Origin: Nanobdellota archaeon
GTDB taxonomy: Archaea; Nanobdellota; Nanobdellia; Woesearchaeales; UBA9642
Length of the DNA: 64,000 nt
Assembly (NCBI GenBank): GCA_021813435.1
Contig: JAKAKR010000013.1
Coordinates: 120,107 to 184,106, forward strand
Direction: 5' to 3'
This document shows positions 34,549 through 52,358 of the stretch, piece by piece. Under the pieces are notes generated by a model. It searched no databases and was not told the DNA's origin. It was given only the letters and a program-made list of their open reading frames with translations. Made by a program: the position numbers and the translations under genes. Position 1 is the stretch's first letter, and each line of letters starts with the position of its first letter.

Positions 34549-36303
34549 TCAGTGCACTAATTTTCGGAATAGGCCGTGTACCTTGCGCGGCATAACCTCA
34601 TGAATCGTCTTGACCTCGGCTTCAGGATGCTCAGTGAGATATTTTTGCACGATCGGACAGGATTTGCTCTCCAGACAGTACTTGCTGAACCCTCCCTGCG
34701 CAAGGTGCGCGCGGATTTCCTGCATCATATCACAATTCCATAATTCTTTATATTTATCCATCGGACCGAGCGGCCGGTAACTGTAACAGCAGAATTTCAC
34801 TCCTGCACGCAAGATGTAACCTGATTCCCAGGGTTCGCGACAAATGGGCGGCGCAGAAACAAGTTTTGTGTCGCGGCGAAAAATTTTTGATGCAGATGCC
34901 GCAAGTTTTGCAGTCTTTGCAGAAAACGTAGACCTTTGGGGAGAAGGCGCTGCATGCGCAGAAGCTGATGAGGCAACAGGAGTGGCAGAATCGCCGGAAG
35001 AATCACGAAGAGAGTCATGAGGAGAATCACCGGAAGAACCAGAAGAAGAATCGCAAGCAGAATCGCATTGTGCAAAGCATGTTCGCACTGCAGACTCATC
35101 CGGCGCCGCCGTATCCTGTTCTGAAGCGAGCAGTTCCTCCTCAATACTGTTCTGGAAGTTGAGTTGGTCAACAAGGCGCACACCATACTTTTTTGCGAGT
35201 TTTCGCGCTTTGATAGATATCGGGATGCGCTCTTCACGACTGAATTTTTCCTTATGATAATCAAAGACATGACCTCCCCGTGGCTCGAGTGGCCCGGGAG
35301 TGAATGAATCATATAATGGTCGCAGTATCATGACATCGACTTTGAGATCGGCGCATAACTTGATAAAATCCTCGAGTTCATGGACATTGAGCCGCATGGG
35401 CATGAATACCAGATAGACTGCAGGCGCGCTTTGCAAGCCCCGCTCCTGAATCAATGCACGGATATTGTCAATAATGCGCGTGAAGGCATTGGATCGTAGT
35501 TTTGCGTAGGTTTCAGGGGTTGCAGCATCGATTGAGATATAGAGATTGATGTGTTTCCCGATGAGGAGCGCGCGATTTTTCGCATTGAGAAGAATTCCAT
35601 TCGTCGACATCTCAAGCATTTTCCCGTTCGTTTCAAACGCGTCAAGTATTTCTGCGATCTGCGGTGAGAGGAATGGTTCGCCAATCGAACAATTCGTCAA
35701 TTGCGCGCAGTGCGTAAAAAATGATCCGTATTCTTTTAGGGTATCTAGAGTGAATGGTGCATGGGTGAATGCCCCCTCCTTTCGCTTTGCATCATCAAAC
35801 TCGCAATAGACGCAGGAAGGCTTGATATTGCAGGTCCCGTTGATGTCAATCCCGAGACGCACCGGATAGGATTGCAGTACTATTTTTCCCTGCATGAATT
35901 CTTCGGTATTCAGTAGGGTATTCTGTGTGATGATGCTTTTCGGAGTTTCGGGAGTATCACTGAACTCCACGTTCCCTAATCGTACCGTGAGCGTTCGTGG
36001 ATCCAGCGGCGCTTCGATCTTTTTGTTTATCTTGAGAACAAGACGTTTGCCCGGAATTCGCGGAATAGTGTAAGTGTTCCAGAGAAAGGCTAATTGCAGT
36101 CGTTTCACGAGTTTTCCATCGATAAAACATTCGACCACTTGTGATCGGTCAAAAAAGTCGCTGTACAGGTCAAGGTGGATATATGCGCCAGGAGCATCCA
36201 GAAGCAGGATGCTGGCTTCAAAAGTGCACCATCGAAATTTGATAGTCCCGTCAGTTTCAGGATTATGGAATCCATACTCATAACATTCTTCTGCAAGAGA
36301 CAT
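34549..36303 (-). CDS. FRW type-A module + radical SAM + SPASM-domain protein with a Ser/Asp-rich insert
   Basis: aa 1-115: FRW module. CNIKPSCVYC cluster motif (CX5CX2C). CSIGEPFL. aa ~393-478: low-complexity region. C-terminal SPASM-like PICREPW..GVKFCCYSY..WNCD..KYCLESKSCPI. Confidence 0.75.
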   Translation of the reverse strand: MSLAEECYEYGFHNPETDGTIKFRWCTFEASILLLDAPGAYIHLDLYSDFFDRSQVVECFIDGKLVKRLQLAFLWNTYTIPRIPGKRLVLKINKKIEAPLDPRTLTVRLGNVEFSDTPETPKSIITQNTLLNTEEFMQGKIVLQSYPVRLGIDINGTCNIKPSCVYCEFDDAKRKEGAFTHAPFTLDTLKEYGSFFTHCAQLTNCSIGEPFLSPQIAEILDAFETNGKMLEMSTNGILLNAKNRALLIGKHINLYISIDAATPETYAKLRSNAFTRIIDNIRALIQERGLQSAPAVYLVFMPMRLNVHELEDFIKLCADLKVDVMILRPLYDSFTPGPLEPRGGHVFDYHKEKFSREERIPISIKARKLAKKYGVRLVDQLNFQNSIEEELLASEQDTAAPDESAVRTCFAQCDSACDSSSGSSGDSPHDSLRDSSGDSATPVASSASAHAAPSPQRSTFSAKTAKLAASASKIFRRDTKLVSAPPICREPWESGYILRAGVKFCCYSYRPLGPMDKYKELWNCDMMQEIRAHLAQGGFSKYCLESKSCPIVQKYLTEHPEAEVKTIHEVMPRKVHGLFRKLVH

Positions 36304-36323
36304 GTATCTGCAATCAGTGGAGT

Positions 36324-36333
36324 GTTTTTATAG
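36324..36333 (-). promoter_or_regulatory. TATA-like box for the 34549-36303 gene
   Basis: The minus strand reads ctataaaaac, 21 nt upstream of the start at 36303. Confidence 0.45.
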
Positions 36334-36350
36334 TTTATGGTTCGTATCAA

Positions 36351-36409
36351 AAAATATACGTCCAGATAATATACGTTCGGATAATATACGCTTGGATAAT
36401 ACGCGCTGG
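36351..36409. repeat. four tandem ~15-nt units (aaaatatacgtccag / ataatatacgttcgg / ataatatacgcttgg / ataatacgcgctgg)
   Basis: Read directly. The units lie immediately distal to the TATA-like box of the minus-strand radical SAM gene. Confidence 0.75.
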
Positions 36410-36498
36410 AGTGAGAGTGGCATGGCGTAAAAGAAATATTTTGAACAACATGCTAATAGGAGCAGAATATTTATATAGTGCAGCGGCACATCGGAGCG

Positions 36499-36657: not shown

Positions 36658-36672
36658 GATCGTCATAAAGAG

Positions 36673-37239
36673 ATGACACGAAGATCATCCATAAAGGCAA
36701 AAAAGATGAAATCCAAATATCGCATCAACAGAACGATGTTACTGTTGCTAATGAGCGTTGCAATCATCAGCATACTTATCAATATTGCGCTCATACTCCT
36801 TTTGATGAATTCTGAAAGGTTGCTACATCCGACAACTACTGTGGATTCGGACATGTCGACAGGGTGGATATCAACGCATCCGATCATTGATGATATGACA
36901 TTCCAAAATTTCTTCGAACAAGAGACCGACCAAAAAATACGATTCCGATGGAGTAGTGATAATTATTCTTCGATTACACTGCCTAAGAAATATGTTGGAA
37001 GGACACTTGAGATTGACGGGTTTTTTTTCGTTTGCCAAAAGAATAATACTCACCCCCATATTGTCGTAAATGGCGCCGCCATTGATGCATTCCCGTTTAA
37101 AATCCGGCTTAATTCAACAACGCTCACATTCCGCTCAAACGACGGGATGCGACCAGTGGATTGTTATACGGAAAACAGTACCTATGATAGACGGACTCTT
37201 ACATTCATGATCACTAATGAGACAAGAATTGTGGGTTAA
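36673..37239 (+). CDS. membrane-anchored stand-alone FRW type-B module protein
   Basis: 188 aa with one N-terminal TM. The remainder aligns with the C-terminal modules of the sulfatase-like paralogues (IRFRWSS...DGFFFVC...MRPVDC...RRTLTFMITNET). Confidence 0.6.
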   Translation: MTRRSSIKAKKMKSKYRINRTMLLLLMSVAIISILINIALILLLMNSERLLHPTTTVDSDMSTGWISTHPIIDDMTFQNFFEQETDQKIRFRWSSDNYSSITLPKKYVGRTLEIDGFFFVCQKNNTHPHIVVNGAAIDAFPFKIRLNSTTLTFRSNDGMRPVDCYTENSTYDRRTLTFMITNETRIVG

Positions 37240-37336
37240 GATTAGAGCACAACACATCGTAAGGGAAAAAGTTATGAGGTTGTTGATTTCCGATAATAAG
37301 AGTGCAAGACAGAAAACGGATATACCGTATCTTAAC

Positions 37337-38827
37337 ATGGATAAGAATAAAAAAAAGATAGCACGAACATTCGTTCTCATAGGCAGTGTCATGATTGGCA
37401 TCCTGCTCATCATTTCCGGATGCACAAATAATGCACAAGAGAAAAAATCAAACGATCCTTTCTGCAAGGATTGTAATGTCATATTCATCAATATTGAACT
37501 CCTCCGCGCAGATTACGTAGACCTCATCAGTACCGAACACGGCAACAACACCCCAAACATCGACAGATTCTTCAAGAACGGCATCATATTCGAGGATGTC
37601 ACCGCTTCAGCAGGAGAGACAGGGATCAGTAATATCGCCACACTCACCAATACAGATTCTTACTTCGTAAACCAGATTGTCAGCATATTCTATAAATCAC
37701 TCAATCAACTCGAACAAGGCAATAAGACTGGAGATCATTCATTGGTGAGTAAATTCACAAAATACTTGACGATTGCGCAGATTCTTCAAGCTAATGGATA
37801 CCGGACCATCTGTATAAATGATGGTGCATTTTCCGGGAAGTACACGTTTATGGATGCGGGATGCGAAAAATATTATGATGTGACAAACGACCCCTCATAC
37901 AATGCAGGGATAACTACCACAGTAAAGAATATCATGTTGCTTGAGAATCTCAAAGGGAAAGAGCAGAATAAATTCTTTTTATTATATCATAGCGATGCGC
38001 TTCACGCATTGCCCTATAAGTATCCTCTTGCACGCGAACATGATACCAATCCATTGATAGAATACATCCATCCTGAGAATAGCGATTACTATGAAACGCG
38101 GTTCCATATCGCTAAGAATGGGACAATCCTTAATAAGGGAGAACTTCGTGCAGAGTTATTCAATACTGATTGGATGGATAATACCACATTCAACACCTAC
38201 CATCAACTTGCGCACACCGTATATGCACAACAAGTAAGATATGTCGATACGGAGTTAGGGAAGATCTTTTCAGAACTAGAACAGAGCGGAATGCTCAAAA
38301 ATTCCATTGTTGTCCTCTACGCAAATCATGGAGACGGATTGTATGATAATAATATACCTAATCATGGAGTCACATATCAATCATGTGTCCATGTGCCGCT
38401 ACTCATCAGACTTCCAAGTAGTACCAGGCAGGAACGTATCACTACCCCGGTCGCATTAATTGACCTCGCGCCGACCATCTATCAGATGACAAGAGTTGAA
38501 AAAAGGAATATATCCGATCTTTCGCCAGACGCGGCCACTGCACGCGCAGGATTACTTCCGGCGATACTGAACGGCACTTATGATCGTGAGTATATCTTTG
38601 GTATGAATAATGGAGAATTTGTGCGATACCAGGATATGAAACTTCACCTCCTCACGGATAATCAGAAAGAATTGTATAATATCACCAGTGACCCGCACGA
38701 AGAGCATAACATCGCAGCGCAATACCCTGAAATCGTTAAAGCATTAAATGATATCATCAGTGCGCATGATATACAAGTGCAGAAAGAGTTTAATGATCGA
38801 TTTGAGAACAGGACTATAGGCAGATAA
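37337..38827 (+). CDS. lipobox-anchored sulfatase-like AP-superfamily enzyme (paralogue 3, no type-B module)
   Basis: Lipobox IISGC. ADYVDLISTEHGNNTPNIDRFF, SAGETGISNIATLT, LYANHGDGL and DPHEEHNIA motifs. It ends shortly after the catalytic domain. Confidence 0.75.
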   Translation: MDKNKKKIARTFVLIGSVMIGILLIISGCTNNAQEKKSNDPFCKDCNVIFINIELLRADYVDLISTEHGNNTPNIDRFFKNGIIFEDVTASAGETGISNIATLTNTDSYFVNQIVSIFYKSLNQLEQGNKTGDHSLVSKFTKYLTIAQILQANGYRTICINDGAFSGKYTFMDAGCEKYYDVTNDPSYNAGITTTVKNIMLLENLKGKEQNKFFLLYHSDALHALPYKYPLAREHDTNPLIEYIHPENSDYYETRFHIAKNGTILNKGELRAELFNTDWMDNTTFNTYHQLAHTVYAQQVRYVDTELGKIFSELEQSGMLKNSIVVLYANHGDGLYDNNIPNHGVTYQSCVHVPLLIRLPSSTRQERITTPVALIDLAPTIYQMTRVEKRNISDLSPDAATARAGLLPAILNGTYDREYIFGMNNGEFVRYQDMKLHLLTDNQKELYNITSDPHEEHNIAAQYPEIVKALNDIISAHDIQVQKEFNDRFENRTIGR

Positions 38828-38851
38828 CCAAAGATAAATGCGATGTACGGA

Positions 38852-40753
38852 TCAGGTTACCTGTAGAGGAATAGTGAGTGGGGAACTGCCCTTATCTTCA
38901 AACCAAAATTTATTTTCAACAACTAAATCAAATTTAAACAGATACATTCCGGGAGATAGTGTCTTATTGAAAATAAACTCTGTATGGAAGAGTGATCCGG
39001 GGGTAATCCCCCCTTCGGGGATTGCTTGTCGTAATTCAAGAACAGGAGTGATTGGATCCTGCGCAGCGTAGACCCTACATCCGACACGCAGGGAATGATC
39101 AGACATCCATGTCTCTTTTCCAGTATTTTTTATCTTTAGCATGAAAGAATTCTTATGAGCAATGAGTTTTTTCTGGATGATTCGCGCAGAGTAAGGGATT
39201 TTTTGTCGGTGATTGGGTGCGGGTATCTTCAAAGATAACACCTTGGTGATTGGATGAGCAAGTAAAGAGATATATCTCTTGAAGAAAGTGGATGTTTTTG
39301 GGAGCATATGCAATTTTGATTGGGGAAATGAGGGAGTGCCACCCCATGCATGCACCATTAGGGATATTCCTGATTGATCGAGATGTTTTTGCATGCGACT
39401 GACAAGTGTCAAACGCCATTCAAGAGTGCTTTTCTTATCAGCAGATTCCCAAATGTCAGGTTTTCTAAATAACGATTCCTGATTCAAGCGATAACACTCG
39501 AGATGTTCGTGGATTCCAGAACCTGGGCAGATTACGACTTCGGCAACATGTCCGACCCCTGAAATGTACGCCTTGTGTTTTGTGATGAATGAGATCGATT
39601 CCTGAAATGTGGCTTCAGTCTCTCCAGGATACCCTACCATGAGATATATCATCACCGGCAAACCTGCAGTATGTGCATCTTTCAGGTTTTTTCCAATGGT
39701 CTCGATACGTACCCCTTTTTTCATCGCATTAAGGATAGACTGAGAAAAACTTTCAGTTCCGAATGCGATAAGTGTAAACCCCGCTTTTTTTAATAGGGTA
39801 AATGTTTTTTGCGTCAATAATGGCGAATGGCGGAATTGTGCGAAGATGAATTCCACATCAAGTTTTGCTGCGATGATGAGTTCGCACAATCGTTCAATCT
39901 GGCTTATGCTTGCATTCGCGCAGAGATCGCTTACTTGGAATTTGCGGTAACCTTCTTGTATCCGCAGTTGGATTTCTGCAAGGATCTGTTCAGGATTTCG
40001 TATCCTCACCCGTTCACCCATTTCATCGCTGTCGACACAATATTCACAGACACCGGGGCATCCACGATTAAATTTTATCCTCACAAAATCTCCGAGGTAC
40101 GCAGAACGGTCATAATCAGAGAAATAAGGAAAGGGTATGGTATCGATATCGCTGATAGGCGGGCGATCACCGCAATCCACAAACGTATCGTCGATCTTGA
40201 GGGATGTTCCTAAACAGTGCCGTGGAACCGTTCCATTTTTGAGAGTATCAACGACTTCACGGAGTGTCTCTTCGCCTTCATTCTTCACAATGCAATCGAC
40301 GAATGGGAATTCATGTTTGTGCAGCGCAGTCACTTGATAACGCCATTTTTTCCGAAAGCAGAAAGTCCTCCCGCCGTAGATGATATATGTCGATGGTGAG
40401 CGTGATTTTATTTTTTGAGCAACATAATCAGTGTATCGCCGATTATAATTCGTCACTGAAAATCCTAAGGCATCCGCATGTTCTGCCAATAAGAGGTCAA
40501 TGAACTGATCCAATAATCCTTGAACATCCGGTGAGATTTCTGCCAATGTATCGCTTGATGACATCCGTGCAAAATATTCGTTTTCGCTCTTATTGATTAC
40601 TGTCGATTCGAAGAATAATTTTTCCAGGTCTACAATGCGCACAAGGATATCAGGATCGCGTGCAACATATCCTTTCAGATATGCAAGACCGAGCGGAGGG
40701 GCGTGGACATGATTACCGAAGGGAAGCATCGCCAACACAAGTTTAAAAGACAT
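38852..40753 (-). CDS. cobalamin-binding-type (class B-like) radical SAM protein with C-terminal Ig-like beta-sandwich
   Basis: N-terminal Rossmann-like LAMLPFG..PPLGLAYLKGY, RGCPGVCEYC (CX3CX2C), and a C-terminal ~115-aa domain (KIKNTGKETW...PGMYLFKFDLVVENKFWFED). Confidence 0.7.
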   Translation of the reverse strand: MSFKLVLAMLPFGNHVHAPPLGLAYLKGYVARDPDILVRIVDLEKLFFESTVINKSENEYFARMSSSDTLAEISPDVQGLLDQFIDLLLAEHADALGFSVTNYNRRYTDYVAQKIKSRSPSTYIIYGGRTFCFRKKWRYQVTALHKHEFPFVDCIVKNEGEETLREVVDTLKNGTVPRHCLGTSLKIDDTFVDCGDRPPISDIDTIPFPYFSDYDRSAYLGDFVRIKFNRGCPGVCEYCVDSDEMGERVRIRNPEQILAEIQLRIQEGYRKFQVSDLCANASISQIERLCELIIAAKLDVEFIFAQFRHSPLLTQKTFTLLKKAGFTLIAFGTESFSQSILNAMKKGVRIETIGKNLKDAHTAGLPVMIYLMVGYPGETEATFQESISFITKHKAYISGVGHVAEVVICPGSGIHEHLECYRLNQESLFRKPDIWESADKKSTLEWRLTLVSRMQKHLDQSGISLMVHAWGGTPSFPQSKLHMLPKTSTFFKRYISLLAHPITKVLSLKIPAPNHRQKIPYSARIIQKKLIAHKNSFMLKIKNTGKETWMSDHSLRVGCRVYAAQDPITPVLELRQAIPEGGITPGSLFHTEFIFNKTLSPGMYLFKFDLVVENKFWFEDKGSSPLTIPLQVT

Positions 40754-40970: not shown

Positions 40971-42890
40971 ATGATTGATCGAAAAAATATCATCATACTA
41001 ACAATCATCGTAGTGCTCTATACCGCTTTTTTATTCTATGTAAGCTACCAATCACCGTATTATCTTGTCCCCGACGATGCAAACCACGTGCAGGAATCAT
41101 ATCTGCTCTCTCAGGGAAATATCCAATATGCGGTAAGAAATTGGACGAGACCGCTCTATGCCATTCCCTGCGCAACATTGATAACACTATTCGGATATAG
41201 CCTGCAATCCTGCAGGCTAATCGAAATTTTCTCGACTATTGGAACAATCATCCTACTCTATCTCATCATCTATCATTTTACAAAGTCAAAAATGTTTGCG
41301 ATGAGTGGGGTAGTATTGTTCGGTATGATCCCTATGGTCATTGTTCTTGCTACTTCAAATTTTGCTGAACCCCTATTCGCATTCATCTTGCTCCTCGGGA
41401 TCTATTTTCTGATACGAGAGAAATGGGCATTATCTGCAATAACGATCGGCCTTCTCCCATTAGTACGTACAGAAGGATTTCTGATGATTGCCGCATGGAT
41501 AGTATATTATATGTCTTTACGCCTTTTTGTGTATGAAGAAAAGACCCGCAGCGGCGTAAAGGTAAAGATAAAAGGCATTCATCTCAAAGAGACGGCGAAC
41601 CATCCGCACATCGCTTTCATCATAGCACTCATCTTGTTACCGACAATTATCTGGTGCATCGCAAGTCTATTCATCCTCGGGAATATATTTAACCCATTCC
41701 AGACATATTCACTTCAAGTATTCAAAGAGACAGAAATATTTATCCCCTTATGGTTCGTCCCCGTACGCATAGCATATTGCATAGGGATTCTTACTTCAGC
41801 ATTATTCATCTTAGCGATGATACGTCTACGCAAGATCCCCGACACTGTACGATTTGCCGCGTATATTGCATTAGGGTTTATCATCATTCTATCAGTATCA
41901 GCAGAATTCCGATTTCTTGGGCAGGGGATGGCAGAACACGCGATGATCATCGCCCCGCTCCTCATACTTACCGGCATCCTATCCATCACTACACTCCCAT
42001 TCAAAAAAAGAACACTCATCATACTCTGCATAATAATCATTCTCGCGCAAGGGATAGAACTATACTCATGGAGTATTGGACATAATACTGATATCACTAA
42101 ATGGCCCGGAATCCTGAATGGACCGACCGGACATAATCGGGAAATCATCAGAGGAAACAGTTCTCCAGAATGGTTTATCGGAGAATCATATAACAAACTC
42201 ACACTCTTCTATGACAAGACCATTCCACAGAATGAAACAATCCAACTTTGTTATATCACGATCATGACCAATTATGCAAATCAATATCCGAAGTATCGAA
42301 TTATCCACACAATAAACGATGTTGAGACACGCAGATTATGCCCCATGTGCGTCCCGAGTTGCGATTTTACAAACAGCGAGTGGATTGTCAGGCATAAGGG
42401 GATACCCCTTGACCTGTCTGACGCCATAAAGGCACGATATGCCATAGTATACGATTCTGAGATGACACAAGTGCTTAAAAAAAATGATGAAGAATTCGAG
42501 CCGGTATTCAATAATCTCACATTCATCAATTTCAGTCAAAAGGGAACTTACGTTAATTTCAGGAATGAAACCATCAGTTTCCGGCAATCGAACAGCACAT
42601 CGTTTGCGATAACCGTTCCCCGATCATTCGTCGGCAAAACAATGGTAATCAGCGGATCTCCATTCTACTGTTTTAGAAATAAGACATATGCAGATATTCG
42701 AGTGAATGGCAATCCGATCAAAGTTTTCCCGTATGAGATTTATCTTAATTCAACAACCGTCATGTTCTCGTCTCCTAATCCTATGATGCCCGCATTTTGC
42801 GAACCGATCACAGAAAATCCATCCAAACAAAACACCGATACCCGAGAGATTGCATTTACCATCAATAATAACACCGTCCTTCTCAAATAG
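40971..42890 (+). CDS. polytopic GT-C-like (ArnT/PMT-like) membrane protein with C-terminal FRW type-B-like module
   Basis: About 11 TM in the first 380 aa, with an acidic first-loop motif YYLVPDDANH. The C-terminal ~128 aa (ISFRQSN...GSPFYCF...IRVNGNPIKVFPYEIYLNSTT...REIAFTINNNT) align with the type-B modules. Confidence 0.6.
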   Translation: MIDRKNIIILTIIVVLYTAFLFYVSYQSPYYLVPDDANHVQESYLLSQGNIQYAVRNWTRPLYAIPCATLITLFGYSLQSCRLIEIFSTIGTIILLYLIIYHFTKSKMFAMSGVVLFGMIPMVIVLATSNFAEPLFAFILLLGIYFLIREKWALSAITIGLLPLVRTEGFLMIAAWIVYYMSLRLFVYEEKTRSGVKVKIKGIHLKETANHPHIAFIIALILLPTIIWCIASLFILGNIFNPFQTYSLQVFKETEIFIPLWFVPVRIAYCIGILTSALFILAMIRLRKIPDTVRFAAYIALGFIIILSVSAEFRFLGQGMAEHAMIIAPLLILTGILSITTLPFKKRTLIILCIIIILAQGIELYSWSIGHNTDITKWPGILNGPTGHNREIIRGNSSPEWFIGESYNKLTLFYDKTIPQNETIQLCYITIMTNYANQYPKYRIIHTINDVETRRLCPMCVPSCDFTNSEWIVRHKGIPLDLSDAIKARYAIVYDSEMTQVLKKNDEEFEPVFNNLTFINFSQKGTYVNFRNETISFRQSNSTSFAITVPRSFVGKTMVISGSPFYCFRNKTYADIRVNGNPIKVFPYEIYLNSTTVMFSSPNPMMPAFCEPITENPSKQNTDTREIAFTINNNTVLLK

Positions 42891-44019: not shown

Positions 44020-44039
44020 ACTGACCGGAGTACAAGAGA

Positions 44040-45077: not shown

Positions 45078-45764
45078 TTAGCGTGACAGTCGTAGCTTTA
45101 TCATGACAATGAATGAGCGTATTCCAACGCCGATAGAATTCTTCTTTCCTTCATTTCTGTCCCGCGAGCGATAATGGATCGACAGTTCTATCACGCGGTT
45201 TTTCTTGATGGAGAGCTTAGCTGCAATTTCGGGGTCAATCTCAAAACCGCACTCTTTTAGTGAAGAAACATCGATTGCGGATTTCCTGAACAGTTTATAA
45301 CAGGTCAAGACATCAGAAAATGTCGTCTTAAAAAGGACATTAAATGCATGGGTAAGGAACCAATTCCCGAATCGGTAAGTAAAAGACATACGCGTTTTTC
45401 CCTGAAGGAATCGCGATCCGAACACGACATCCGCTGTTCCGCGCAGGATCGGTTTCAAAAGCGCGGGAATATCTTTAGGGGAGTATTCAAGGTCTGCGTC
45501 ATGAATAAGGATAATCTCTCCACGGGCGATTGCAAGTCCTTTACGCACCGCGTTGCCTTTTCCAAGATTTTTTTTGCAATGGATGATTCGGATGTGTGGG
45601 CGGTGGTTAAATGTCAAAAGCACCTTGCGGGTATTATCTGTACTTCCATCATTGACAATGATGATTTCGTATTCAAGAGGGAATCTTGTTGAAGAAATCT
45701 CCTCGATAGCATGGGATATGAACTGCTGTTCATTATAAACCGGAACGATAATAGAGAGCATCAT
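45078..45764 (-). CDS. GT2 glycosyltransferase (DPM1-like, soluble)
   Basis: LSIIVPVYNEQ, IIIVNDGSTDNT, NLGKGNAVRKG and IHDADLEYSP motifs. Confidence 0.8.
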   Translation of the reverse strand: MMLSIIVPVYNEQQFISHAIEEISSTRFPLEYEIIIVNDGSTDNTRKVLLTFNHRPHIRIIHCKKNLGKGNAVRKGLAIARGEIILIHDADLEYSPKDIPALLKPILRGTADVVFGSRFLQGKTRMSFTYRFGNWFLTHAFNVLFKTTFSDVLTCYKLFRKSAIDVSSLKECGFEIDPEIAAKLSIKKNRVIELSIHYRSRDRNEGKKNSIGVGIRSFIVMIKLRLSR

Positions 45765-45804: not shown

Positions 45805-47208
45805 TTAAGATTTTTCTTTCATCTGTCGATGAAGTGTCTTTCTTAAACGACGTACCCGTGATTTTAAAAATGTTGTCACATAACGTGGCCGAAAATAATA
45901 CTCCCTAAACGCGAGGGAGAGCATTTCCGAAATATCTTTCGGGTTGAGATCCGGATGTCTGATAACAGGAGATAACAGATTATATGTTTCATAGTCATAA
46001 GTCAGAATGCGATTGCTTTTTTTCATATCCGCAAAGAGTGGTGTTCCGGGGTAGGGTGTAAAGATTGAAAATTTTGCAAGAGTGGTGTTCAATGTTTTTG
46101 CATAGGTTAATGTTGCACGCATTGATTCTTTGGTATCTGTATCATATCCGAAGATGTAGAATGCGGCGATAGTGATCCCGTTCTTTTCTGCAAATCGTAT
46201 CAATGATTCATCACGGGGAGAGCAATTGATGACGCGCTTATTATGGATTCCTACTTTAGCGTTTATTGTTTCCATACCGACATTGATATTGCAGAGTCCA
46301 ACATCGCGCATCATAAGGATCTTTTTTTCGTCAAGGATAGATAACCTTGTCTCTATTCCCCATTGCAGGGGAAGTCTGTGCTTGCGTAGTTCGGCGCAGA
46401 ATTCTTCAATATAGCCCGGGGTCAGACCAAAGACCGGATCTCGAAACTGGAATCCTCGAATGCCGAATTTCGTGTAGAGATAATGCATATCCCCGACTAC
46501 TTTTTTTGGCGAGCGTAGATTGATTTTCGAACCTTGAAAATGCGGGTATAGACAGTAATAGGAACAACTGAAAGGACAGCCTTTTGAACTCTGCAATGTA
46601 AAAAAAGGTCTACGGGTTATTGCAGGATAATAGTTATAGCTTCGTATAGGGAATCCTTCAAGTTCAGGACGGGGGAGTGAGTCCATGTCAACATTCCCAT
46701 GAACAGTAATTACGTCACGAAGTTCAGCGATGTCCGCAAAAATGTTGAGGAAATATTTTTCAAAATCTCCTTTGATGATGAAATCAGCATTGGTAAAAAG
46801 TTCAGGCATTGTCGAAGGGAATGGGCCGATAAATCCTATTCTTGAATGAGGAAACCGTTCTTTCAATTCCCGGCAGACCTTATTTTCATGAGTATAATCA
46901 ACGATTGATCCGAAGATTAATATGACGGTAAACTCCTCTTGCGGCAGCGTCCCTTCAAAATAGGTTGCACGGATTCCTCGCGCTTTGAAAATACCCATCA
47001 GGAATGCAAGAGAGATGATGGGCAATTTCACCATACGTTTTTTGAAGGACCCGATGATTTTTTCAAAAACCGTGTTAGAATGATCGTCAGCAGTCCCGAA
47101 ACCGCAAAGATCCTTATTCATTGCATAATGCTTTTTCGTATTTACGATATTTACGACTGCAAAAGAAGGTTTCGAAGATCCATAAAAAGAATTTTTTTGG
47201 CGGAGCAT
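45805..47208 (-). CDS. class B-like radical SAM protein with unusual CX3CX3C motif
   Basis: N-terminal Rossmann-like domain. KGCPFSCSYYC was verified from the DNA (46552-46578). The downstream radical SAM core includes GIETRL.. and NVGMET. Confidence 0.65.
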   Translation of the reverse strand: MLRQKNSFYGSSKPSFAVVNIVNTKKHYAMNKDLCGFGTADDHSNTVFEKIIGSFKKRMVKLPIISLAFLMGIFKARGIRATYFEGTLPQEEFTVILIFGSIVDYTHENKVCRELKERFPHSRIGFIGPFPSTMPELFTNADFIIKGDFEKYFLNIFADIAELRDVITVHGNVDMDSLPRPELEGFPIRSYNYYPAITRRPFFTLQSSKGCPFSCSYYCLYPHFQGSKINLRSPKKVVGDMHYLYTKFGIRGFQFRDPVFGLTPGYIEEFCAELRKHRLPLQWGIETRLSILDEKKILMMRDVGLCNINVGMETINAKVGIHNKRVINCSPRDESLIRFAEKNGITIAAFYIFGYDTDTKESMRATLTYAKTLNTTLAKFSIFTPYPGTPLFADMKKSNRILTYDYETYNLLSPVIRHPDLNPKDISEMLSLAFREYYFRPRYVTTFLKSRVRRLRKTLHRQMKEKS

Positions 47209-47520
47209 GGTGTTTGTTTGAGGTAAAATGTAAATGCCAGAGACATCTTATGGACGCAATATCTGCAAGATTCAAAGGCATATGTCCTGCCATGATAAAA
47301 CAATGTAAATTTATAAAGCTGTTGTTACAGTATTGTCACAGCGTATTATATAACTATAACCGCCGATAGTAAGACTGATGATAGCAATGCAGATAATTGC
47401 GATCGATAATAATAATGACCCAGATAACCGCGATATTGGCAGCATCAATCAGTTTCAACAATTTTATAAACATCATCCCATTAATAGAACGATTGAGATA
47501 ATCAATCACGATAGAAGACA

Positions 47521-49008
47521 ATGATTCAAAAGGACCGACATCACAACGTATTAAGAACAGACATTCTATTTGTAAGTCTTCCTCTATCATTGAAAGAACG
47601 GCATGGTACGAACGCGCAAGAAGTGGGGGGTTATCTTCCGCCCCTCGGAATCGCGTATCTTGCAGCATATGCTCGATCCCATGGATTCAGTGTCGGAATC
47701 ATCGATAATGCTATCGAAAATAATACGACAGCAACACTCATCAATAAGGTTCTTAAAGCGCATCCAAAAGTCGTCGGGATATCCGCATTAACACCGCACT
47801 ATTTTAAGGCGGTAGAATTTGCCCAAGGACTGAAGAAACAAGATAAAGATATCGTAATCATTCTTGGCGGACCCCACGCAACGATTATGCCAAAGGAATC
47901 CATAAACGAAGGATGTTTTGATATACTGGTCCGCGGCGAGGGAGAGTTGACCATAAAAGAAGTACTAGATGCATTAAAGAGACAGCGATGGAATAAAGAT
48001 AATTTTTTGAAAGATCATGATACATTACAACAGATTAAAGGGATTGTATTCCGGAAACATAAAGAGATCATCATTACACCCCCACGAGAACGGATCGCGG
48101 ATCTCGATGAACTTCCCTTTCCGGCATGGGATTTACTGCCCATGGAAAAATATCTTCCATTACCTAATCAATACAAAAGAAAGCCCGTAACAAGCCTGGT
48201 CGTCATAAGAGGATGCCCATTCAATTGTAGTTTCTGCTCAAGCAGCCAGTTCTTCGGTCGAAAAGTTCGAGCGATGAGCCCTGAACGGGTCATAGAACTT
48301 ATGCGCCACTTAAAGAAGACATATCATATCAAAGAGATAGATTTTTGGGATGATATGCTCACCATAGACAAGAAATGGATGCATAGATTATGTCGATTGA
48401 TGATCAGTAAAAAGATCGATATGAGCTGGACATGTTATGCACGTGTCGATTCAGTCGATGAAAAACTATTGGCGCATATGAAGAATGCGGGATGTTGGAG
48501 TATTTTTTTCGGGTATGAATCAGGAAGCCAGGAATTATTGGATAATATCGGCAAGGGCATCACGATAGAACAGATAATACGTACAAACGCATTATGTAAA
48601 AAAGTAGGGATAGAGATAAGAGCGGCATTTATGTTGGGACTTCCAGGAGAGACTCCCGAATTAGGGAGAAAGACCATCGAATTCGCAAAGAAGTTAAATC
48701 CTGATTATGCGCAATTTGCAATCACAACCCCATTTCCGGGAACAAAACTATATGCTGATGCAAAAAGATACGGTACGTTAAAAAAAAATTTTACTGCATA
48801 CACGGGATGGAAAGCAGTATTTGTTCCATACGGATATAAAAATGCGGAGCAGATAGAAGAATTAAAGATAATGGCAATAAAAGAATTCCATATCAGGCTC
48901 GCATATATGATGAATCGACTTCAAAAGATCGACAGCCTAGAAGACATTTCACGGTACGTGAAGGGGATGAGACTGCTTGCAGGGTTTAGACAAAAGAAAA
49001 AGAGATGA
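47521..49008 (+). CDS. cobalamin-binding (class B) radical SAM protein
   Basis: GGYLPPLGIAYLAAY... and VVGISALT.. (B12-binding-like domain), then RGCPFNCSFC and FGYESGS. Confidence 0.8.
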   Translation: MIQKDRHHNVLRTDILFVSLPLSLKERHGTNAQEVGGYLPPLGIAYLAAYARSHGFSVGIIDNAIENNTTATLINKVLKAHPKVVGISALTPHYFKAVEFAQGLKKQDKDIVIILGGPHATIMPKESINEGCFDILVRGEGELTIKEVLDALKRQRWNKDNFLKDHDTLQQIKGIVFRKHKEIIITPPRERIADLDELPFPAWDLLPMEKYLPLPNQYKRKPVTSLVVIRGCPFNCSFCSSSQFFGRKVRAMSPERVIELMRHLKKTYHIKEIDFWDDMLTIDKKWMHRLCRLMISKKIDMSWTCYARVDSVDEKLLAHMKNAGCWSIFFGYESGSQELLDNIGKGITIEQIIRTNALCKKVGIEIRAAFMLGLPGETPELGRKTIEFAKKLNPDYAQFAITTPFPGTKLYADAKRYGTLKKNFTAYTGWKAVFVPYGYKNAEQIEELKIMAIKEFHIRLAYMMNRLQKIDSLEDISRYVKGMRLLAGFRQKKKR

Positions 49009-49069: not shown

Positions 49070-49591
49070 TCATTCATGGACTCCATCAGATCGTTCTAAC
49101 ACCATAAAATTATTAAGACCGCATTGAAAAGAAGAATACGTAACGACGCGGAATCCACACGCATCGGCAAGTGCATATAATTCATGTTTACGCCAATACT
49201 TTTTATGTTCTAGAATATTTTTTCTATCAACAATCCGCAAGAATGAAAGTACTTCAAGGATCGGTTTAGCTGCAGGAGCAGGTGTTGTCAGGATAAGGAA
49301 TCCATCCTTTCTCAGATGAGTCTTTAGCATCGACAATACAGGCTTAACACGACTCACCGTAATATGTTCCAGTACGCCAAGCATAATGATACGATCGAAT
49401 CGTTTATGTTTGAGGACAGCATAATTCTTATTGCAAAGCGTATATGTTCCCGAAACAAGGGGCCGTAACTCTCCTTTATTACCGCCGAAATCTAAAACAT
49501 CACCGTTGAGATATTTACGCGCCTGCCTAAAGCGCCGAAGTTGAAGGAAACGTTCAAGAATATTAGTGTCAGTAGGGATCATCATCACCAT
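49070..49591 (-). CDS. class I SAM-dependent methyltransferase
   Basis: VLDFGGNKG (motif I-like), RFDRIIMLGVLEHI and DGFLILTTP. I chose an internal start; the 65-aa N-terminal extension in the track looks non-coding. Confidence 0.65.
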   Translation of the reverse strand: MVMMIPTDTNILERFLQLRRFRQARKYLNGDVLDFGGNKGELRPLVSGTYTLCNKNYAVLKHKRFDRIIMLGVLEHITVSRVKPVLSMLKTHLRKDGFLILTTPAPAAKPILEVLSFLRIVDRKNILEHKKYWRKHELYALADACGFRVVTYSSFQCGLNNFMVLERSDGVHE

Positions 49592-49801
49592 AAGACAGGT
49601 ACATTTTAAAATATTGCTATTTCCAATAACCAAAAAGCGTGTGCAATCAGGGCGAGTAATAACATTGCTGCCAAGTAAATAAGTGATGCAGACACAATAC
49701 TGACCGCAATGATCATGACTTGACTTTCTCTGCAAGGAGAAGAATTTATAAAGAAAAGTAATATAAAAAAAGAAAGAATAACACATAGAACGTGTAATGC
49801 C

Positions 49802-50890
49802 ATGGCGTCAATAAAAAATAATCTTGCACATCTGAGATTCATACAACGAAAACCATTAGTGATGTTGCGAATCATAAATGGATTCTTCAGGACAATAATT
49901 CTGCGGAAGAATACGCTGCGAAGCGTGGATTGGGCAATGACCTATCGATGTAATTTTAATTGTCAATACTGCTCAGCAAAAGATCTTCAAGAACACACGG
50001 TAAAAACCGCGGAATTATCCGTTGATGAAATCAAGAAAATAGGAAGAGAAGCAAGTGCATTAGGAGCCATCCATTTCAATCTTACCGGCGGTGAACCGAC
50101 ACTCCGCGGCATTGAAACATTATGCGCCATCATCCGATCACTACGTCCAAAACAACATCTGATATCGATGGTCACCAATGCATCACTATTAAAAAAAGAG
50201 GATATCAAAAAACTTAAAGATGCAGGATTGGACACCATCCAATTATCCATTGAGAGTGTGGATCCACAAGTCCATGATACAATCCGAAGAACCGTTGACA
50301 ACCATAACAAGATCCTTGAAGTCATGCAATGGGCTAAGGCACAGAAACTCAATATCTGCCTGAGTGGTGTTCTGACAAGACATAATTTCCATGATATGCA
50401 GAAACTTATTGATTTCGCAAGAAAAGAGAAGGTCTTTTTCTTGATCAACCTCGCATCATCATCCGGAAATTGGAAATCCAATGATGACGTAAAACTTACG
50501 ACGGCGGATCTTAAGGCGTATTATGCATTATTCAAAGAAGGGCATGTACGGACAGACACCATCCTTAATTTCAGAGGAAGAAGCGGATGCCCCGCAGGAG
50601 TAGAGCGTATCTATATCAGCGCAAACGGGGAAGTTATGACCTGTCCTCATGTACAGGTCTCTTATGGCAATGTGAGGACAGAACCATTGGCAAAAATCTA
50701 TTATCGGATATCACATTTTCCTGTATTGAAGAAATTTGAAAAACATTGTCGGCACGTATTTAATAAAGCATATATCCAAGATTATGTATACCCTCAGAAA
50801 CATGCATCCCGATTGCCCGTATCCATCTTTGATCTTAAGACAGTCAAGGAACACAAAGAATTACAGGAGTTTCTTGATTCAACAAAATAA
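49802..50890 (+). CDS. radical SAM protein with SPASM/twitch-like C-terminal Cys region
   Basis: TYRCNFNCQYC (CX3CX2C), NLTGGEPTL, and C-terminal GRSGCPAG...GEVMTCPH. Confidence 0.75.
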   Translation: MASIKNNLAHLRFIQRKPLVMLRIINGFFRTIILRKNTLRSVDWAMTYRCNFNCQYCSAKDLQEHTVKTAELSVDEIKKIGREASALGAIHFNLTGGEPTLRGIETLCAIIRSLRPKQHLISMVTNASLLKKEDIKKLKDAGLDTIQLSIESVDPQVHDTIRRTVDNHNKILEVMQWAKAQKLNICLSGVLTRHNFHDMQKLIDFARKEKVFFLINLASSSGNWKSNDDVKLTTADLKAYYALFKEGHVRTDTILNFRGRSGCPAGVERIYISANGEVMTCPHVQVSYGNVRTEPLAKIYYRISHFPVLKKFEKHCRHVFNKAYIQDYVYPQKHASRLPVSIFDLKTVKEHKELQEFLDSTK

Positions 50891-50930
50891 GGGATGAAAA
50901 AACTGTTCACTGAAAGATATCAGCAGAACT

Positions 50931-52358
50931 ATGAAAGGAATATCCATGAAAACCGTATTGATAAGCCCGCCCACTAAACATATGCTCAAGACCACACTTC
51001 CTAAATACATCGAGGAAGAACGAGGAGCATATCCGCCACTCGGTCTTATGTATCTCGCATCATATCTTAAAGAGCGAGGAGAAGATATCACTGTTCTTGA
51101 CGGACAATTTCTTGATTATTCGCAGATTGAATCAGCATTGAGAAGGATCAAGCCGGATATTGTAGGTATCCAAGCATTAAGCTTTACATTGATTGATGCA
51201 TTATATGTTGCACGGATCGTAAGAAAGATTGATAAGAGGATCATTATCGTATTTGGAGGTCGACATCCGACATTATTCCCGCAGGAGACAGTGAATCTTC
51301 CTGAAGTGGATATTGTCGTGCAGGGTGAAGGAGAAATCCCCTTTCATGGATTGGTAAAGAATATCCACAACAAGGATGCATTGAAAAAGGTTAAAGGGTT
51401 GGTATTTATGGACGGAAAGCAGATCATCAATACCGGATTTGCAACAATACCAGAATTAGATACACTCCCATTTCCCGATATCGACAGTCTTCTCCTGAAG
51501 AAGTATAAGTGCCTCATCTCAAAAAAAGGCGGATTTATGACGATGATAACCAGCAGAGGCTGTCCATTCAACTGCACATTCTGCGATGAAAAACATAGCG
51601 TATTCCGATCCCGAAGCGCAAAAAATGTTGTCGATGAGATCGAAACGTACGTCGCGTCAGGAATCAAAAACATCTTTTTCTATGATGCTACATTTAGCAT
51701 CAATAAGACACGGGCCATTGCAATTTGCGATGAGATCATAACGCGGAACATCAAAGTCAATATTGAATTACGGACGCGGGTCGACTTAGTCGACGACGAC
51801 ATACTCAAAAAATTAAAACAGGCCGGATGCATCAGGATACAATACGGCATAGAATCGGGAAGCGACCACATCCTAAAGAATCTCAATAAACATACCACGG
51901 TAGAGAAGATTACCGCAGTTGTTCAGAAAACAGAAAAATACGGGTTTGAGATCCTTGCAGATTTTATGATCGGATGCCCCGGAGAAAAAAAGGAGGATAT
52001 TGAAAGGACCATCGCATTCGCATGTGCATTACCGATCGATTATGCACACTTCACGATTTTGACACCATACCCGGCGACTGAATTATATCATGAGGGACTA
52101 AAGAGAGGCATCATCAAAACAGATTATTGGAGAAGATTTGCAGAACATCCCCAAGAGGATTTTGAACCGAAGATTTGGGAAGAGCACTTCAAGAGGGAAG
52201 AACTTACAGAACTCCTCAACACCGCATATAAACGATTCTATACCAGACCGACGTATATCGCAAAACAATTCCTGAAGATGCGCTCATTCCATGAATTGAA
52301 GAAAAAGACTAAAGCAGGATTAATACTGCTTAAACATACCTCGCGTCAGAGAATGTAG
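50931..52358 (+). CDS. cobalamin-binding (class B) radical SAM protein (paralogue of 47521)
   Basis: GAYPPLGLMYLASYL and IVGIQALSF.., then SRGCPFNCTFC and YGIESGS. Confidence 0.8.
   Translation: MKGISMKTVLISPPTKHMLKTTLPKYIEEERGAYPPLGLMYLASYLKERGEDITVLDGQFLDYSQIESALRRIKPDIVGIQALSFTLIDALYVARIVRKIDKRIIIVFGGRHPTLFPQETVNLPEVDIVVQGEGEIPFHGLVKNIHNKDALKKVKGLVFMDGKQIINTGFATIPELDTLPFPDIDSLLLKKYKCLISKKGGFMTMITSRGCPFNCTFCDEKHSVFRSRSAKNVVDEIETYVASGIKNIFFYDATFSINKTRAIAICDEIITRNIKVNIELRTRVDLVDDDILKKLKQAGCIRIQYGIESGSDHILKNLNKHTTVEKITAVVQKTEKYGFEILADFMIGCPGEKKEDIERTIAFACALPIDYAHFTILTPYPATELYHEGLKRGIIKTDYWRRFAEHPQEDFEPKIWEEHFKREELTELLNTAYKRFYTRPTYIAKQFLKMRSFHELKKKTKAGLILLKHTSRQRM

Follow-up and report, generated by a model that had tools for sequence, protein, structure and literature searches.

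We analyzed 64,000 nucleotides of a contig from a Nanobdellota archaeon (GenBank assembly GCA_021813435.1, contig JAKAKR010000013.1, positions 120,107–184,106; hereafter the window, with positions counted from its first letter). The window contains a mosaic surface-glycan locus of ~45 kb, at about 13–56 kb, in which genes for radical S-adenosylmethionine (rSAM) enzymes are densely clustered. One of these genes, at 45805–47208, encodes a predicted relative of the sugar dehydratase AprD4, and homologues of this gene recur in other phyla next to genes for family 2 glycosyltransferases (GT2) of the polyprenyl-phosphate-sugar synthase class. In the reading that we favor, and to which we give about an even chance of being right, the locus assembles a polymer and exports it through an ABC transporter, and a separately acquired gene block makes unusual sugars by radical chemistry, which are then attached through a lipid-phosphate-sugar donor and a GT-C-type glycosyltransferase. 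A first-pass annotation had already suggested that radical chemistry acts on a glycoconjugate in this locus, and this general idea is supported by conserved synteny and by gene fusions.

Radical SAM genes of the locus

Seven proteins of the locus contain rSAM domains. They are referred to below by the start coordinate of their genes.

34549–36303 (−), rSAM/SPASM enzyme with an N-terminal type A beta-sandwich and a non-canonical CX5CX2C motif
38852–40753 (−), class-B-type rSAM enzyme, CX3CX2C, with a C-terminal extension of ~150 amino acids (aa)
45805–47208 (−), AprD4-like rSAM enzyme, CX3CX3C, the conserved core of the module described below
47521–49008 (+), class B enzyme (B12-binding and rSAM domains), CX3CX2C, HpnJ/BchE/ApyD-like
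49802–50890 (+), rSAM and SPASM/twitch enzyme, CX3CX2C
50931–52358 (+), class B enzyme (B12-binding and rSAM domains), CX3CX2C, BchE/HpnJ-like
19808–22972 (+), fusion of DUF6625, a family 8 glycosyltransferase (GT8), a type A module and an rSAM/SPASM-like domain, the seventh rSAM domain

Open reading frames (ORFs) for all rSAM genes were present at the coordinates given in the first-pass annotation, and each of the seven proteins carries a three-cysteine motif and matches a Pfam or NCBIfam model, which bears out the earlier count of six rSAM genes and one fused rSAM domain. Six of these genes lie among 13 consecutive genes, and the seven domains fall within 33 kb. Under a binomial model with an assumed rSAM share of ~2% of the genes per genome, we estimate the probability of such a cluster at ~1e-7; the clustering is non-random and far beyond chance. 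Gene GC content is 0.385–0.432 between 36673 and 52358, compared with 0.44–0.49 in the neighboring genes of the locus and in the flanks. This block of lower GC content (36.6–52.4 kb) holds five of the six rSAM genes, and its composition suggests that the right arm of the locus was probably acquired separately from the left arm.

The first-pass annotation had described four of the enzymes as cobalamin-type. This description fits 47521 (B12-binding 85.9 bits, Radical_SAM 84.2 bits) and 50931 (80.3 and 97.9 bits, respectively), for which both domains scored above the Pfam cut-offs (32.1 bits gathering cut-off for B12-binding, PF02310). The B12-binding match of 38852 stayed below this threshold (25.5 bits; Radical_SAM 70.2 bits), and 45805, with 16.9 bits for B12-binding and a CX3CX3C motif, resembles AprD4, which lacks cobalamin. 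Judging from their sequences, two of the three proteins 38852, 47521 and 50931 are probably cobalamin-dependent.

Both proteins that had been annotated as combinations of rSAM and SPASM domains proved to be such. For 49802, Pfam reported Radical_SAM at 98.5 bits and SPASM at 24.7 bits, above the cut-off of 21.5 bits for the latter (PF13186). Its best matches in the Protein Data Bank (PDB) were MoaA and PqqE, its sequence neighbors included DesII and BlsE, and it aligned with PDB entry 7TOL over 115 residues (E 2.6e-7). For 34549, no Pfam family was found even at E ≤ 10 and a PDB sequence search gave no match, whereas NCBIfam models of rSAM/SPASM maturases matched with E 2e-19. Its 279 homologues are ~600 aa long and mostly contain PF04055, and an alignment of 47 family members showed an invariant CX5CX2C motif (C158/C164/C167) and four further invariant cysteines toward the C-terminus (C488/C505/C543/C549). 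In a Foldseek comparison, the AlphaFold model of 34549 (predicted local distance difference test, pLDDT, 83; predicted template modeling score, pTM, 0.80) was closest to SuiB, SkfB and DesII and also matched CteB, BlsE, viperin and the anaerobic sulfatase-maturating enzyme (anSME). The protein is thus a genuine rSAM/SPASM enzyme. The family to which it belongs is mostly bacterial.

In the fusion protein 19808, DUF6625 (170 bits) and GT8 (80 bits) were detected together with Radical_SAM at 22.8 bits, which is below the cut-off. Its cluster motif CNQSCMNC has the CX3CX2C spacing, and residues 657–900 are paralogous to 34549 (BLASTP E 3e-15).

Orthologues of 38852 were found on contigs L042–L046 (41–55% identity), and an orthologue of 50931 (42% identity) adjoins a GT2 gene on L104. 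The C-terminal extension of 38852 (aa ~480–633; …NTGKETW…FKFDLVVENKFWFEDKGS…) has no match in Pfam and is retained in the few full-length orthologues, those on L042, L043 and L044.

The rSAM genes fall outside well-characterized families with unrelated roles, as none reaches the NCBIfam equivalog cut-off for Tes, anSME, MoaA, PqqE, HpnJ, BchE or a maturase of peptides made by the ribosome and modified after translation (RiPPs). HpnJ was the top model for 47521, over nearly its full length, and BchE the top model for 50931 with HpnJ second, again nearly full length. The HpnJ scores of 45805, 47521 and 50931 were 140, 231 and 195 bits against a cut-off of at least 577.6 bits (TIGR03471), and the window contains no hpn genes. 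With the Tes model (NF045702, at least 450 bits), 49802 scored 64 bits and 19808 scored 17 bits. With scores this far under the curated cut-offs, identities as Tes/Grs, MoaA, PqqE, HpnJ, BchE or RiPP equivalogs were rejected. Decoration with phosphonates was also considered, as models of the PhpK/Sden_1168 P-methyltransferases scored 148–162 bits; it was dropped because no phosphoenolpyruvate mutase was present among the ORFs scanned in 13–58 kb.

The AprD4-like enzyme

The Pfam scores of 45805 for Radical_SAM (27.9 bits) and B12-binding are both under the respective cut-offs. Among the NCBIfam models, HpnJ matched best over nearly the full length, followed by AprD4 and BchE with ~101 bits each. 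AprD4 (PDB 6FD2) is the best solved relative of 45805 (E 4e-24) as well as of 47521 (E 7e-27) and 50931 (E 1e-23). The cluster-binding segment GCPFSCSYYCLYP of 45805 aligns with GCPYPCRFYCPYP of AprD4, with the same CX3CX3C spacing and an identical YCxYP context. All of 30 homologues retain residues C211, C215, C219, Y218 and Y221. The score of 100.7 bits does not reach the AprD4 equivalog threshold (NF033070, at least 500 bits), and by this curated standard 45805 is classified as a distant relative of AprD4 and not as a family member. The closest homologue of 45805 other than itself is only 57% identical.

AprD4 catalyzes the dehydration of a vicinal diol on a glycosidically bound sugar, after which the reductase AprD3 completes the deoxygenation; it acts on a glycoside and not on a nucleoside diphosphate (NDP)-sugar. 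Both AprD4 and ArsL lie within the similarity network of B12-dependent rSAM enzymes without binding cobalamin (PMC12931638). The sequence features of 45805 indicate that it, too, is probably cobalamin-independent.

Conservation of the module across genomes

We compared 33 loci with full-length homologues of 45805 and counted partner genes within 10 kb of this anchor. Several contigs were short, so that the following counts are lower bounds:

GT2 of the 45078 type (GT2c; homologues of 45078, 36–44% identity), usually adjacent to the anchor, 15 of 33 loci
Second class B rSAM gene (paralogues of 47521), 13 of 33 loci
Short-chain dehydrogenase/reductase (SDR) directly downstream, usually overlapping, 12–13 of 33 loci
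Carbamoyltransferase (homologues of 13711), 7 of 33 loci
DegT aminotransferase, 6 of 33 loci
SPASM-type rSAM gene, 5 of 33 loci

The loci belong to Woese-, Pace- and Nanoarchaeota, Aenigmatarchaeota, a ‘Methanosarcinales’ metagenome-assembled genome (MAG), Falkowbacteria, Omnitrophota, Bacteroidota, Phycisphaerae, Neomarinimicrobiota and Prochlorococcus. We regard the rSAM genes as functionally tied to the glycan genes because their linkage is found again in other phyla. Horizontal transfer has distributed the module widely. Its minimal form was found on L039, where a trio of GT2, rSAM and SDR genes is embedded among ribosomal and exosome genes. GT-C genes (PMT_2 or YfhO) lie beside the module on L007, L009, L015, L016 and L037 and, with weaker matches, on L010 and L032, and further loci encode unassignable polytopic proteins that resemble 40971 of the window. 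Further rSAM-dense loci are L009, with four B12-type rSAM genes, one SPASM rSAM gene, three GT2 genes, two PMT_2 genes, SDR, DegT and LPG_synthase_TM, and L015, with three B12-type rSAM genes, one further rSAM gene, a sulfatase, PMT_2, a GT2c-type gene, DegT, a carbamoyltransferase and a DUF6541-like gene.

Six single-cell genomes of Prochlorococcus (L024, L025, L027, L030, L033 and L034) encode AprD4-like homologues of 29–38% identity. In this aerobic marine organism the GT2c-type gene adjoins the rSAM gene on L024, L025 and L027, and a carbamoyltransferase gene adjoins it as well on L024 and L025.

The notion of a conserved cassette, which the first-pass annotation had raised, needs to be narrowed. 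The complete set of six rSAM genes was found in the same species only, whereas sub-modules of it recur across phyla. An identical 47521 protein is encoded on 15 contigs, including two NCBI MAGs, with the same gene order, and these contigs represent one species; the genome scan anchored on 45805 had missed this species, whose sequence in the window differs in the search pattern. Part of the set occurs on L042, a contig of 7.9 kb from a relative, with homologues of 34549 (62% identity), 38852 (48%) and 40971 (53%) together with an SGNH gene. A metagenome scan anchored on 38852 yielded four close orthologues, all on contigs of at most 6 kb. Among sampled metagenomic loci of at least 15 kb with distant class B enzymes, 6 of 25 contained at least three rSAM genes and up to six, and several of these rSAM-rich loci include a GT2c-like gene.

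HMMER searches with 38852 recovered few orthologues and many proteins of 1000–2700 aa with two to five tandem B12-rSAM modules (P0362, P0364, P0365, P0367–P0372 and P0382). Two of these giant proteins combine a SPASM rSAM domain with four B12-rSAM modules in one chain, and a protein from a Nitrospirota MAG consists of a GT2, TPR repeats, Methyltransf_23, two B12-rSAM modules and a SPASM rSAM domain. To our knowledge, multi-rSAM polyproteins of this kind have not been described. A one-to-one match between the fused modules and the rSAM enzymes of the window was rejected: all modules are closest to 38852 (25–30% identity), which points to serial action of this subfamily, together with a link to a GT2 and a methyltransferase, and not to a fused copy of the cassette.

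Glycan genes around the radical SAM genes

The following genes accompany the rSAM genes, with scores for Pfam families unless stated otherwise.

13071–13694 (+), small protein with three transmembrane (TM) helices, upstream of the carbamoyltransferase
13711–15507 (+), O-carbamoyltransferase of the NodU/CmcH type (Carbam_trans_N 264 bits, Carbam_trans_C 240 bits; NodU 179 bits)
15530–15961 (−), stand-alone type A module (BLASTP: fusion protein 19808 E 1.6e-24, rSAM enzyme 34549 E 1e-11)
16008–17351 (−), family 4 glycosyltransferase (GT4; Glycos_transf_1 102 bits)
17403–19817 (+), two GT2 domains, candidate of the polymerizing type (Glycos_transf_2, two stretches, 134 bits)
23505–24629 (+), GT2 with four C-terminal TM helices at residues 236–358 (Glycos_transf_2 99 bits; architecture of dolichol-phosphate-sugar synthases)
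24753–26837 (+), type I phosphodiesterase/NPP-like, secreted or anchored (Phosphodiest 94.8 bits; N-terminal TM helix)
27474–31331 (+), two paralogous lipoproteins of the alkaline phosphatase superfamily, 27474–29396 and 29418–31331 (Sulfatase 90 and 74 bits; C-terminal type B module)
31438–32463 (+), GT4 (Glycos_transf_1 90.7 bits)
32475–33991 (+), ABC-2 permease and ATPase, exporter of the Wzm/Wzt or TagGH type (ABC2_membrane 33.6 bits, ABC_tran 76.8 bits)
34112–34372 (−), pseudogene (86 aa, N-terminal remnant of a DPM1-type GT2) immediately downstream of rSAM gene 34549
36673–37239 (+), TM-anchored stand-alone type B module, the first gene of lower GC content (0.40)
37217–38827 (+), third sulfatase-like lipoprotein (Sulfatase 113 bits)
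40971–42890 (+), polytopic protein with ~10–12 TM helices and a soluble C-terminus of ~270 aa with a type B module, GT-C candidate
43000–45047 (+), two SGNH/GDSL hydrolases, candidate O-acyl esterases or transferases (Lipase_GDSL_2 61 and 35 bits; one N-terminal TM helix each)
45078–45764 (−), soluble GT2 of 228 aa, AglJ/DPM1/ArnC/PgfS class, i.e., polyprenyl-phosphate-sugar synthase type (Glycos_transf_2 127.5 bits)
49070–49786 (−), class I SAM methyltransferase (Methyltransf_23 40.6 bits over residues 91–216)
52411–52908 (−), degraded DPM1-type GT2 in two fragments, 52411–52701 and 52783–52908, of which 41 aa of the N-terminus and 96 aa of the C-terminus remain and the middle is lost
53354–54463 (−), GT4 (Glycos_transf_1 90 bits)
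54530–56122 (−), DUF6541 membrane protein with ten TM helices, second GT-C candidate (30.2 bits, cut-off 29; homologue on L015)

In the right arm, 45078 by its NCBIfam matches (AglJ with 122 bits, followed by PgfS, ArnC, a Dol-P-hexose transferase and PpgS, all under the equivalog cut-offs) is predicted to be of the polyprenyl-phosphate-sugar synthase class. Most of the genes that the first-pass annotation had listed as interleaved with the rSAM genes, namely the GT2, two SGNH hydrolases, a Methyltransf_23 protein and a member of the sulfatase superfamily, were recovered. Its GT-C-like protein, 40971, is classed as such by topology and very weak matches only (DUF2079, E 1.9; AZOBR_p60025, E 4e-4); it has a ‘VPDD’ sequence in its first loop, and a single-sequence AlphaFold model reached a pLDDT of 39. 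The ORF 49070 comprises 238 aa, compared with 170–173 aa in public gene calls. Its initial ~65 residues have a non-genic look, and translation probably begins at an internal start, giving a protein of ~170 aa. The C-terminus of the small membrane protein 13071–13694 is 58% identical to an ORF beside a carbamoyltransferase gene on L007, and the two genes may form a conserved pair.

No nucleotidyltransferase, dehydratase, epimerase, Wzx or AglB/STT3 was found in 13–58 kb, so that the earlier statement on missing nucleotide-sugar genes, Wzx and AglB held for this interval. The first-pass annotation listed no exporter and had overlooked the ABC-2 pair at 32475–33991, which explains the absence of Wzx.

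All three sulfatase-like proteins have a lipobox-like signal (an AGC motif in the pair at 27474–31331) and lack the formylglycine motif C/S-x-P-x-R. In an alignment of 37217 with 4UPI, the sequence T-G-I-S-N takes the place of the sulfatase motif C-x-P-S-R, with threonine at the formylglycine position. Their sequences suggest that these paralogues are probably phospho-ester transferases or hydrolases and not sulfatases.

A beta-rich module of ~115–120 aa with the signature FRW...DxRxL, which has no Pfam family, occurs in seven proteins of the locus. The cytoplasmic ‘type A’ is found in 15530–15961, in 19808–22972 (aa 652–770) and in 34549–36303 (aa 11–125); the extracytoplasmic ‘type B’ forms the C-terminal ~120 aa of 27474–29396, 29418–31331, 36673–37239 and 40971–42890. 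BLASTP linked 36673 to the C-termini of 27474, 29418 and 40971 (E 1e-21 to 3e-33), and the connection between types A and B is weak (hhalign probability 46%, E 2e-4). In the AlphaFold model of 34549 the module is an all-beta domain (residues 12–115), and it is conserved at the N-terminus throughout the 34549 family, including its bacterial members. The shared module probably binds a common glycan.

The translation of the remnant at 34112–34372 begins ‘...LIVLPVYNEE...ILIADN’ and is cut after ~85 aa; by tblastn it matches the other GT2 fragment. The two fragments at 52411–52908 correspond to the beginning and the end of GT2 ORFs encoded on L007, L016 and L115, with an E-value of 0.075 for the N-terminal fragment against the Pfam GT2 model. 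This second remnant is identical in three assemblies and therefore reflects gene decay and not an assembly error; the comparison of the three assemblies covered 52411–52908 and not 34112–34372.

Proposed mechanism

Domain content, motifs, synteny and fusions, as described above, were observed directly. In the scheme that we infer, including its substrate, the order of its steps and the lipid- or polymer-linked state of the sugar during rSAM action, the GT4, GT2 and GT8 enzymes and the carbamoyltransferase of the left arm (13–34 kb) would build a polymer on the cytoplasmic face of the membrane, and the ABC-2 pair would export it. Outside the cell, the threonine-type lipoproteins of the alkaline phosphatase superfamily and the NPP-type phosphodiesterase would act on phospho-esters. 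In parallel, 45078 and perhaps 23505 would load a sugar onto dolichol phosphate. The AprD4-like enzyme 45805 would then abstract a hydrogen from the glycosidically bound sugar and dehydrate a vicinal diol to yield a keto-deoxy sugar, on which 38852, 47521, 50931, the SPASM rSAM enzyme 49802 and the SAM methyltransferase could carry out further steps; candidate reactions are C-methylation, epimerization, oxidation and possibly a ring contraction of the HpnJ/Cds type. The donor would be flipped by a protein not recognized in the locus and transferred outside by 40971 and/or 54530, with the exported polymer or surface proteins as acceptors, and the SGNH enzymes would edit O-acyl groups. The shared beta-rich module would keep the enzymes on one glycan, similar to the carbohydrate-binding module (CBM) of the Citrobacter GT-C enzyme discussed below. 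The pairing of rSAM and SDR genes in 12–13 of the related loci fits the logic of AprD4 and AprD3, and DegT would fit transamination of a keto intermediate.

Several observations weigh against this scheme. The assignment of 40971 to GT-C was made purely on topology. None of the flippases GtrA, MATE and LPG_synthase_TM was recognized in 13–58 kb. An AprD3-like SDR partner was absent from the window in tblastn and Pfam searches, as was DegT, and the product of 45805 may for this reason remain a keto-deoxy sugar or pass to the other rSAM enzymes. The class B paralogues in other loci are only 25–40% identical, so that their roles may differ, and the two decayed GT2 genes imply that parts of the block may be non-functional. 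Finally, the structural neighbors of 34549 include RiPP maturases, and in the two genomes examined its closest bacterial homologues stand alone among housekeeping or mixed genes outside glycan loci and give no clue to function.

Comparison with known systems

The closest framework for the proposed lipid-linked route is three-component extracytoplasmic glycosylation with auxiliary donor-modifying enzymes, as described for Citrobacter youngae O1/O2 (Kelly et al. 2024, PMC11127046); further examples are GtrABC, CsbB/GtcA/YfhO, ArnC/ArnD/ArnT and DprE1/E2 with Emb/Aft. Like these systems, the locus has a small GT2 of the polyprenyl-phosphate-sugar synthase class, and a backbone polymer that would be exported separately. 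GT-C or GT-C-like proteins with a C-terminal beta-rich module recall ORF12 of Citrobacter with its CBM, and the SDR is optional, like orf13, being kept in some related loci and lost in others. In contrast to the known systems, the donor-modifying enzymes here would be rSAM enzymes, up to six of them, which are undescribed there; no flippase is recognized, 40971 is no more than a GT-C candidate, and the host is a DPANN archaeon.

The closest enzyme is AprD4, which together with AprD3 carries out the C3'-deoxygenation in apramycin and tobramycin biosynthesis (6FD2). The two enzymes share CX3CX3C within a GCPxxCxxYCxYP context and an N-terminal Rossmann-like domain with a poor score for B12-binding, and an SDR partner follows most orthologues of 45805. 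Unlike AprD4, which belongs to an aminoglycoside cluster, 45805 lies in a surface-glycan locus, in a window that has no SDR, and scores 101 bits against a threshold of 500.

The streptococcal rhamnose-glycopolymers GAC and SCC are relatives of this three-component framework. After export of their backbone by an ABC transporter, GacI/PgfS (GT2), GacL (GT-C) and GacH, a glycerol-phosphate transferase of the LtaS type, decorate it extracellularly. The locus likewise combines an ABC-2 exporter, a GT2 of the undecaprenyl-phosphate-sugar type for which PgfS is the second NCBIfam match, a GT-C candidate and extracytoplasmic enzymes of the alkaline phosphatase superfamily with a threonine nucleophile. 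It differs in its archaeal host, in phosphatase-superfamily lipoproteins that lack a polytopic anchor, and in the rSAM enzymes, which are absent from the streptococcal systems. The B12-binding and rSAM architecture of 47521 and 50931 resembles that of class B sugar C-methyltransferases of the GenK, GenD1, MoeK5 and Fom3 type. For such natural-product enzymes, C-methylation of glycosidically bound sugars is established (PMC12931638). Unlike them, 47521 and 50931 reach no equivalog cut-off and lie in a cell-envelope context, and methyl transfer is here only a candidate reaction.

Alternative explanations

The likeliest of the alternatives, though itself unlikely, is that the rSAM enzymes act one step earlier or later, either on soluble nucleotide sugars, in the manner of DesII with its thymidine diphosphate (TDP)-sugar substrates, or on the completed polymer in the cytoplasm, prior to ABC export, with the GT2/GT-C route providing an independent decoration. 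DesII and BlsE are near 34549 in structure and near 49802 in sequence, the DegT and SDR neighbors in related loci are classical nucleotide-sugar enzymes, and the fusion of a glycan-binding-like type A module to cytoplasmic rSAM enzymes, in 19808 also to GT8, fits docking to a polymer. This is countered by the lack of a nucleotidyltransferase, dehydratase or epimerase in 13–58 kb, by the glycoside substrate of AprD4, and by the tightest neighbor of the AprD4-like gene, which is a GT2 of the polyprenyl-phosphate-sugar synthase type. Post-assembly tailoring of the polymer, which had been suggested in the first-pass annotation, is one option; the conserved partners of the AglJ/DPM1 type, SDR and PMT_2/YfhO point more narrowly to modification of a donor sugar in lipid-phosphate-linked (or other glycosidic) form, followed by its transfer to the cell exterior.

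We think it quite unlikely that the block instead remodels the head group of a membrane glycolipid, by contracting the ring of a lipid-bound hexose to give a cyclitol, as in HpnI/HpnJ or Cds, or by methylating lipids scavenged from the host. Among NCBIfam models, HpnJ ranks first for 45805 and 47521 and second for 50931, over nearly the full length, and a model of the B12-rSAM enzymes of ladderane lipids matches too. The pairing of a GT2 with a class-B-like rSAM enzyme mirrors HpnI/HpnJ, and the HpnI/HpnK/HpnJ and Cds systems likewise act on a lipid-anchored hexose. HpnJ and Cds have been proposed to ring-contract lipid-linked sugars (PMC13459092), which counts in favor of this explanation. 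The scores, however, lie far under the equivalog cut-offs (140–231 bits against 578 for HpnJ; the Tes cut-off is 450), no hopanoid or glycerol dialkyl glycerol tetraether (GDGT) genes accompany the block, and the neighboring GT-C, ABC-2 exporter, carbamoyltransferase and DegT genes are typical of glycan loci. The CX3CX3C motif, shared with AprD4, may also speak for this enzyme rather than HpnJ. The DPANN host probably has no lipid synthesis of its own.

It is highly improbable that the rSAM genes of the right arm form a cluster for RiPP or peptide maturation, with class B C-methyltransferases and a SPASM cross-linker, that merely happens to lie inside a glycan locus. Matches to ApyD (216 bits) and rSAM_ocin_1 (91–122 bits), the structural similarity of 34549 to SuiB, SkfB and CteB, and a 48-codon ORF (47378–47524) overlapping the start of 47521 could be read in this way. 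Yet the scores are far under the cut-offs of 750 bits for ApyD and 282 bits for rSAM_ocin_1, the small ORF has neither a cysteine nor a Pfam family nor known conservation, and the other small ORFs in gaps between genes were GT2 fragments or unconserved in a non-exhaustive peptide search. In many phyla, moreover, GT2, SDR and GT-C genes turn up again as linked partners, and one fusion protein combines a GT2 and a methyltransferase with the same types of rSAM domain.

A role of the SPASM rSAM enzymes as anSMEs for the three proteins of the Pfam Sulfatase family, in line with the JGI label ‘sulfatase maturation enzyme AslB’ of some 34549 homologues, is already contradicted and was rejected, because all three proteins lack the C/S-x-P-x-R motif and, with threonine at the position of the formylglycine nucleophile, need no anSME, which is itself only distantly related (E 1.6e-4 for 49802; for 34549 no match by sequence and rank 31 by fold).

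Distribution and implications

Returning to radical modification of lipid-linked donor sugars, we tentatively propose, as a generalization that is somewhat more likely to need revision than to stand, that an AprD4-like rSAM enzyme and a DPM1-type GT2, with optional SDR, DegT and class B or SPASM rSAM enzymes, constitute a widespread, undescribed accessory module of polyprenyl-phosphate-sugar/GT-C systems. This module, horizontally spread among DPANN archaea, the candidate phyla radiation (CPR), Omnitrophota, Bacteroidota and Prochlorococcus, would use radical chemistry that needs no oxygen to form deoxy, amino-deoxy, C-methyl or carbocyclic sugars on lipid carriers; the present locus would be the most elaborate version known so far, and the giant rSAM proteins of four to five modules its fused versions. 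The open-access literature searched yielded no account of rSAM enzymes in surface-glycan systems of this kind or in glycan loci of DPANN archaea, and nothing relevant under the assembly accession; one cyanophage paper reports an rSAM maturase beside sugar genes, which belongs to a different family.

If correct, the proposal would extend the radical chemistry of sugars beyond antibiotics and hopanoids to glycans of the cell envelope, give three-component glycosylation systems a new kind of auxiliary enzyme, and provide a functional context for thousands of unannotated class B rSAM enzymes in metagenomes. The trio of GT2, CX3CX3C rSAM enzyme and SDR is small and tractable in vitro. DPANN archaea live attached to hosts and have genomes of ~1 Mb, ~4% of which would here be spent on a single glycan locus with seven Fe–S radical enzymes. 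Such an investment suggests that unusual surface sugars are important for attachment, host range or virus evasion.

Host and flanking regions

The sequence of the window places its host among the Woesearchaeota (DPANN). The flanks contain housekeeping genes of archaea, namely TYW1, NMD3, a gene for a Hel308-type helicase and an MtrA-ThyA fusion. A Woesearchaeota protein shares 71% identity with the helicase at 10811, the next named relatives have 60%, 58% and lower identity, and almost all named relatives belong to Candidatus Woesearchaeota or Nanoarchaeota. A tRNA scan found no tRNA genes. At 120–1073 (−) and 4815–6404 (−) lie an eighth rSAM gene, which is an ordinary TYW1 of wyosine synthesis, and, nearby, a fusion of MtrA-like, thymidylate synthase and pterin-binding domains.

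Just past the other end of the locus, 58262–59869 (−) and 59980–61392 (+) encode secreted proteins with CarboxypepD_reg/Big_1-like repeats and Por_Secre_tail-like segments. The strand skew is extreme near 58–60 kb, with an AT skew of −0.46. The two secreted proteins may be surface proteins and, as such, candidate targets of glycosylation.

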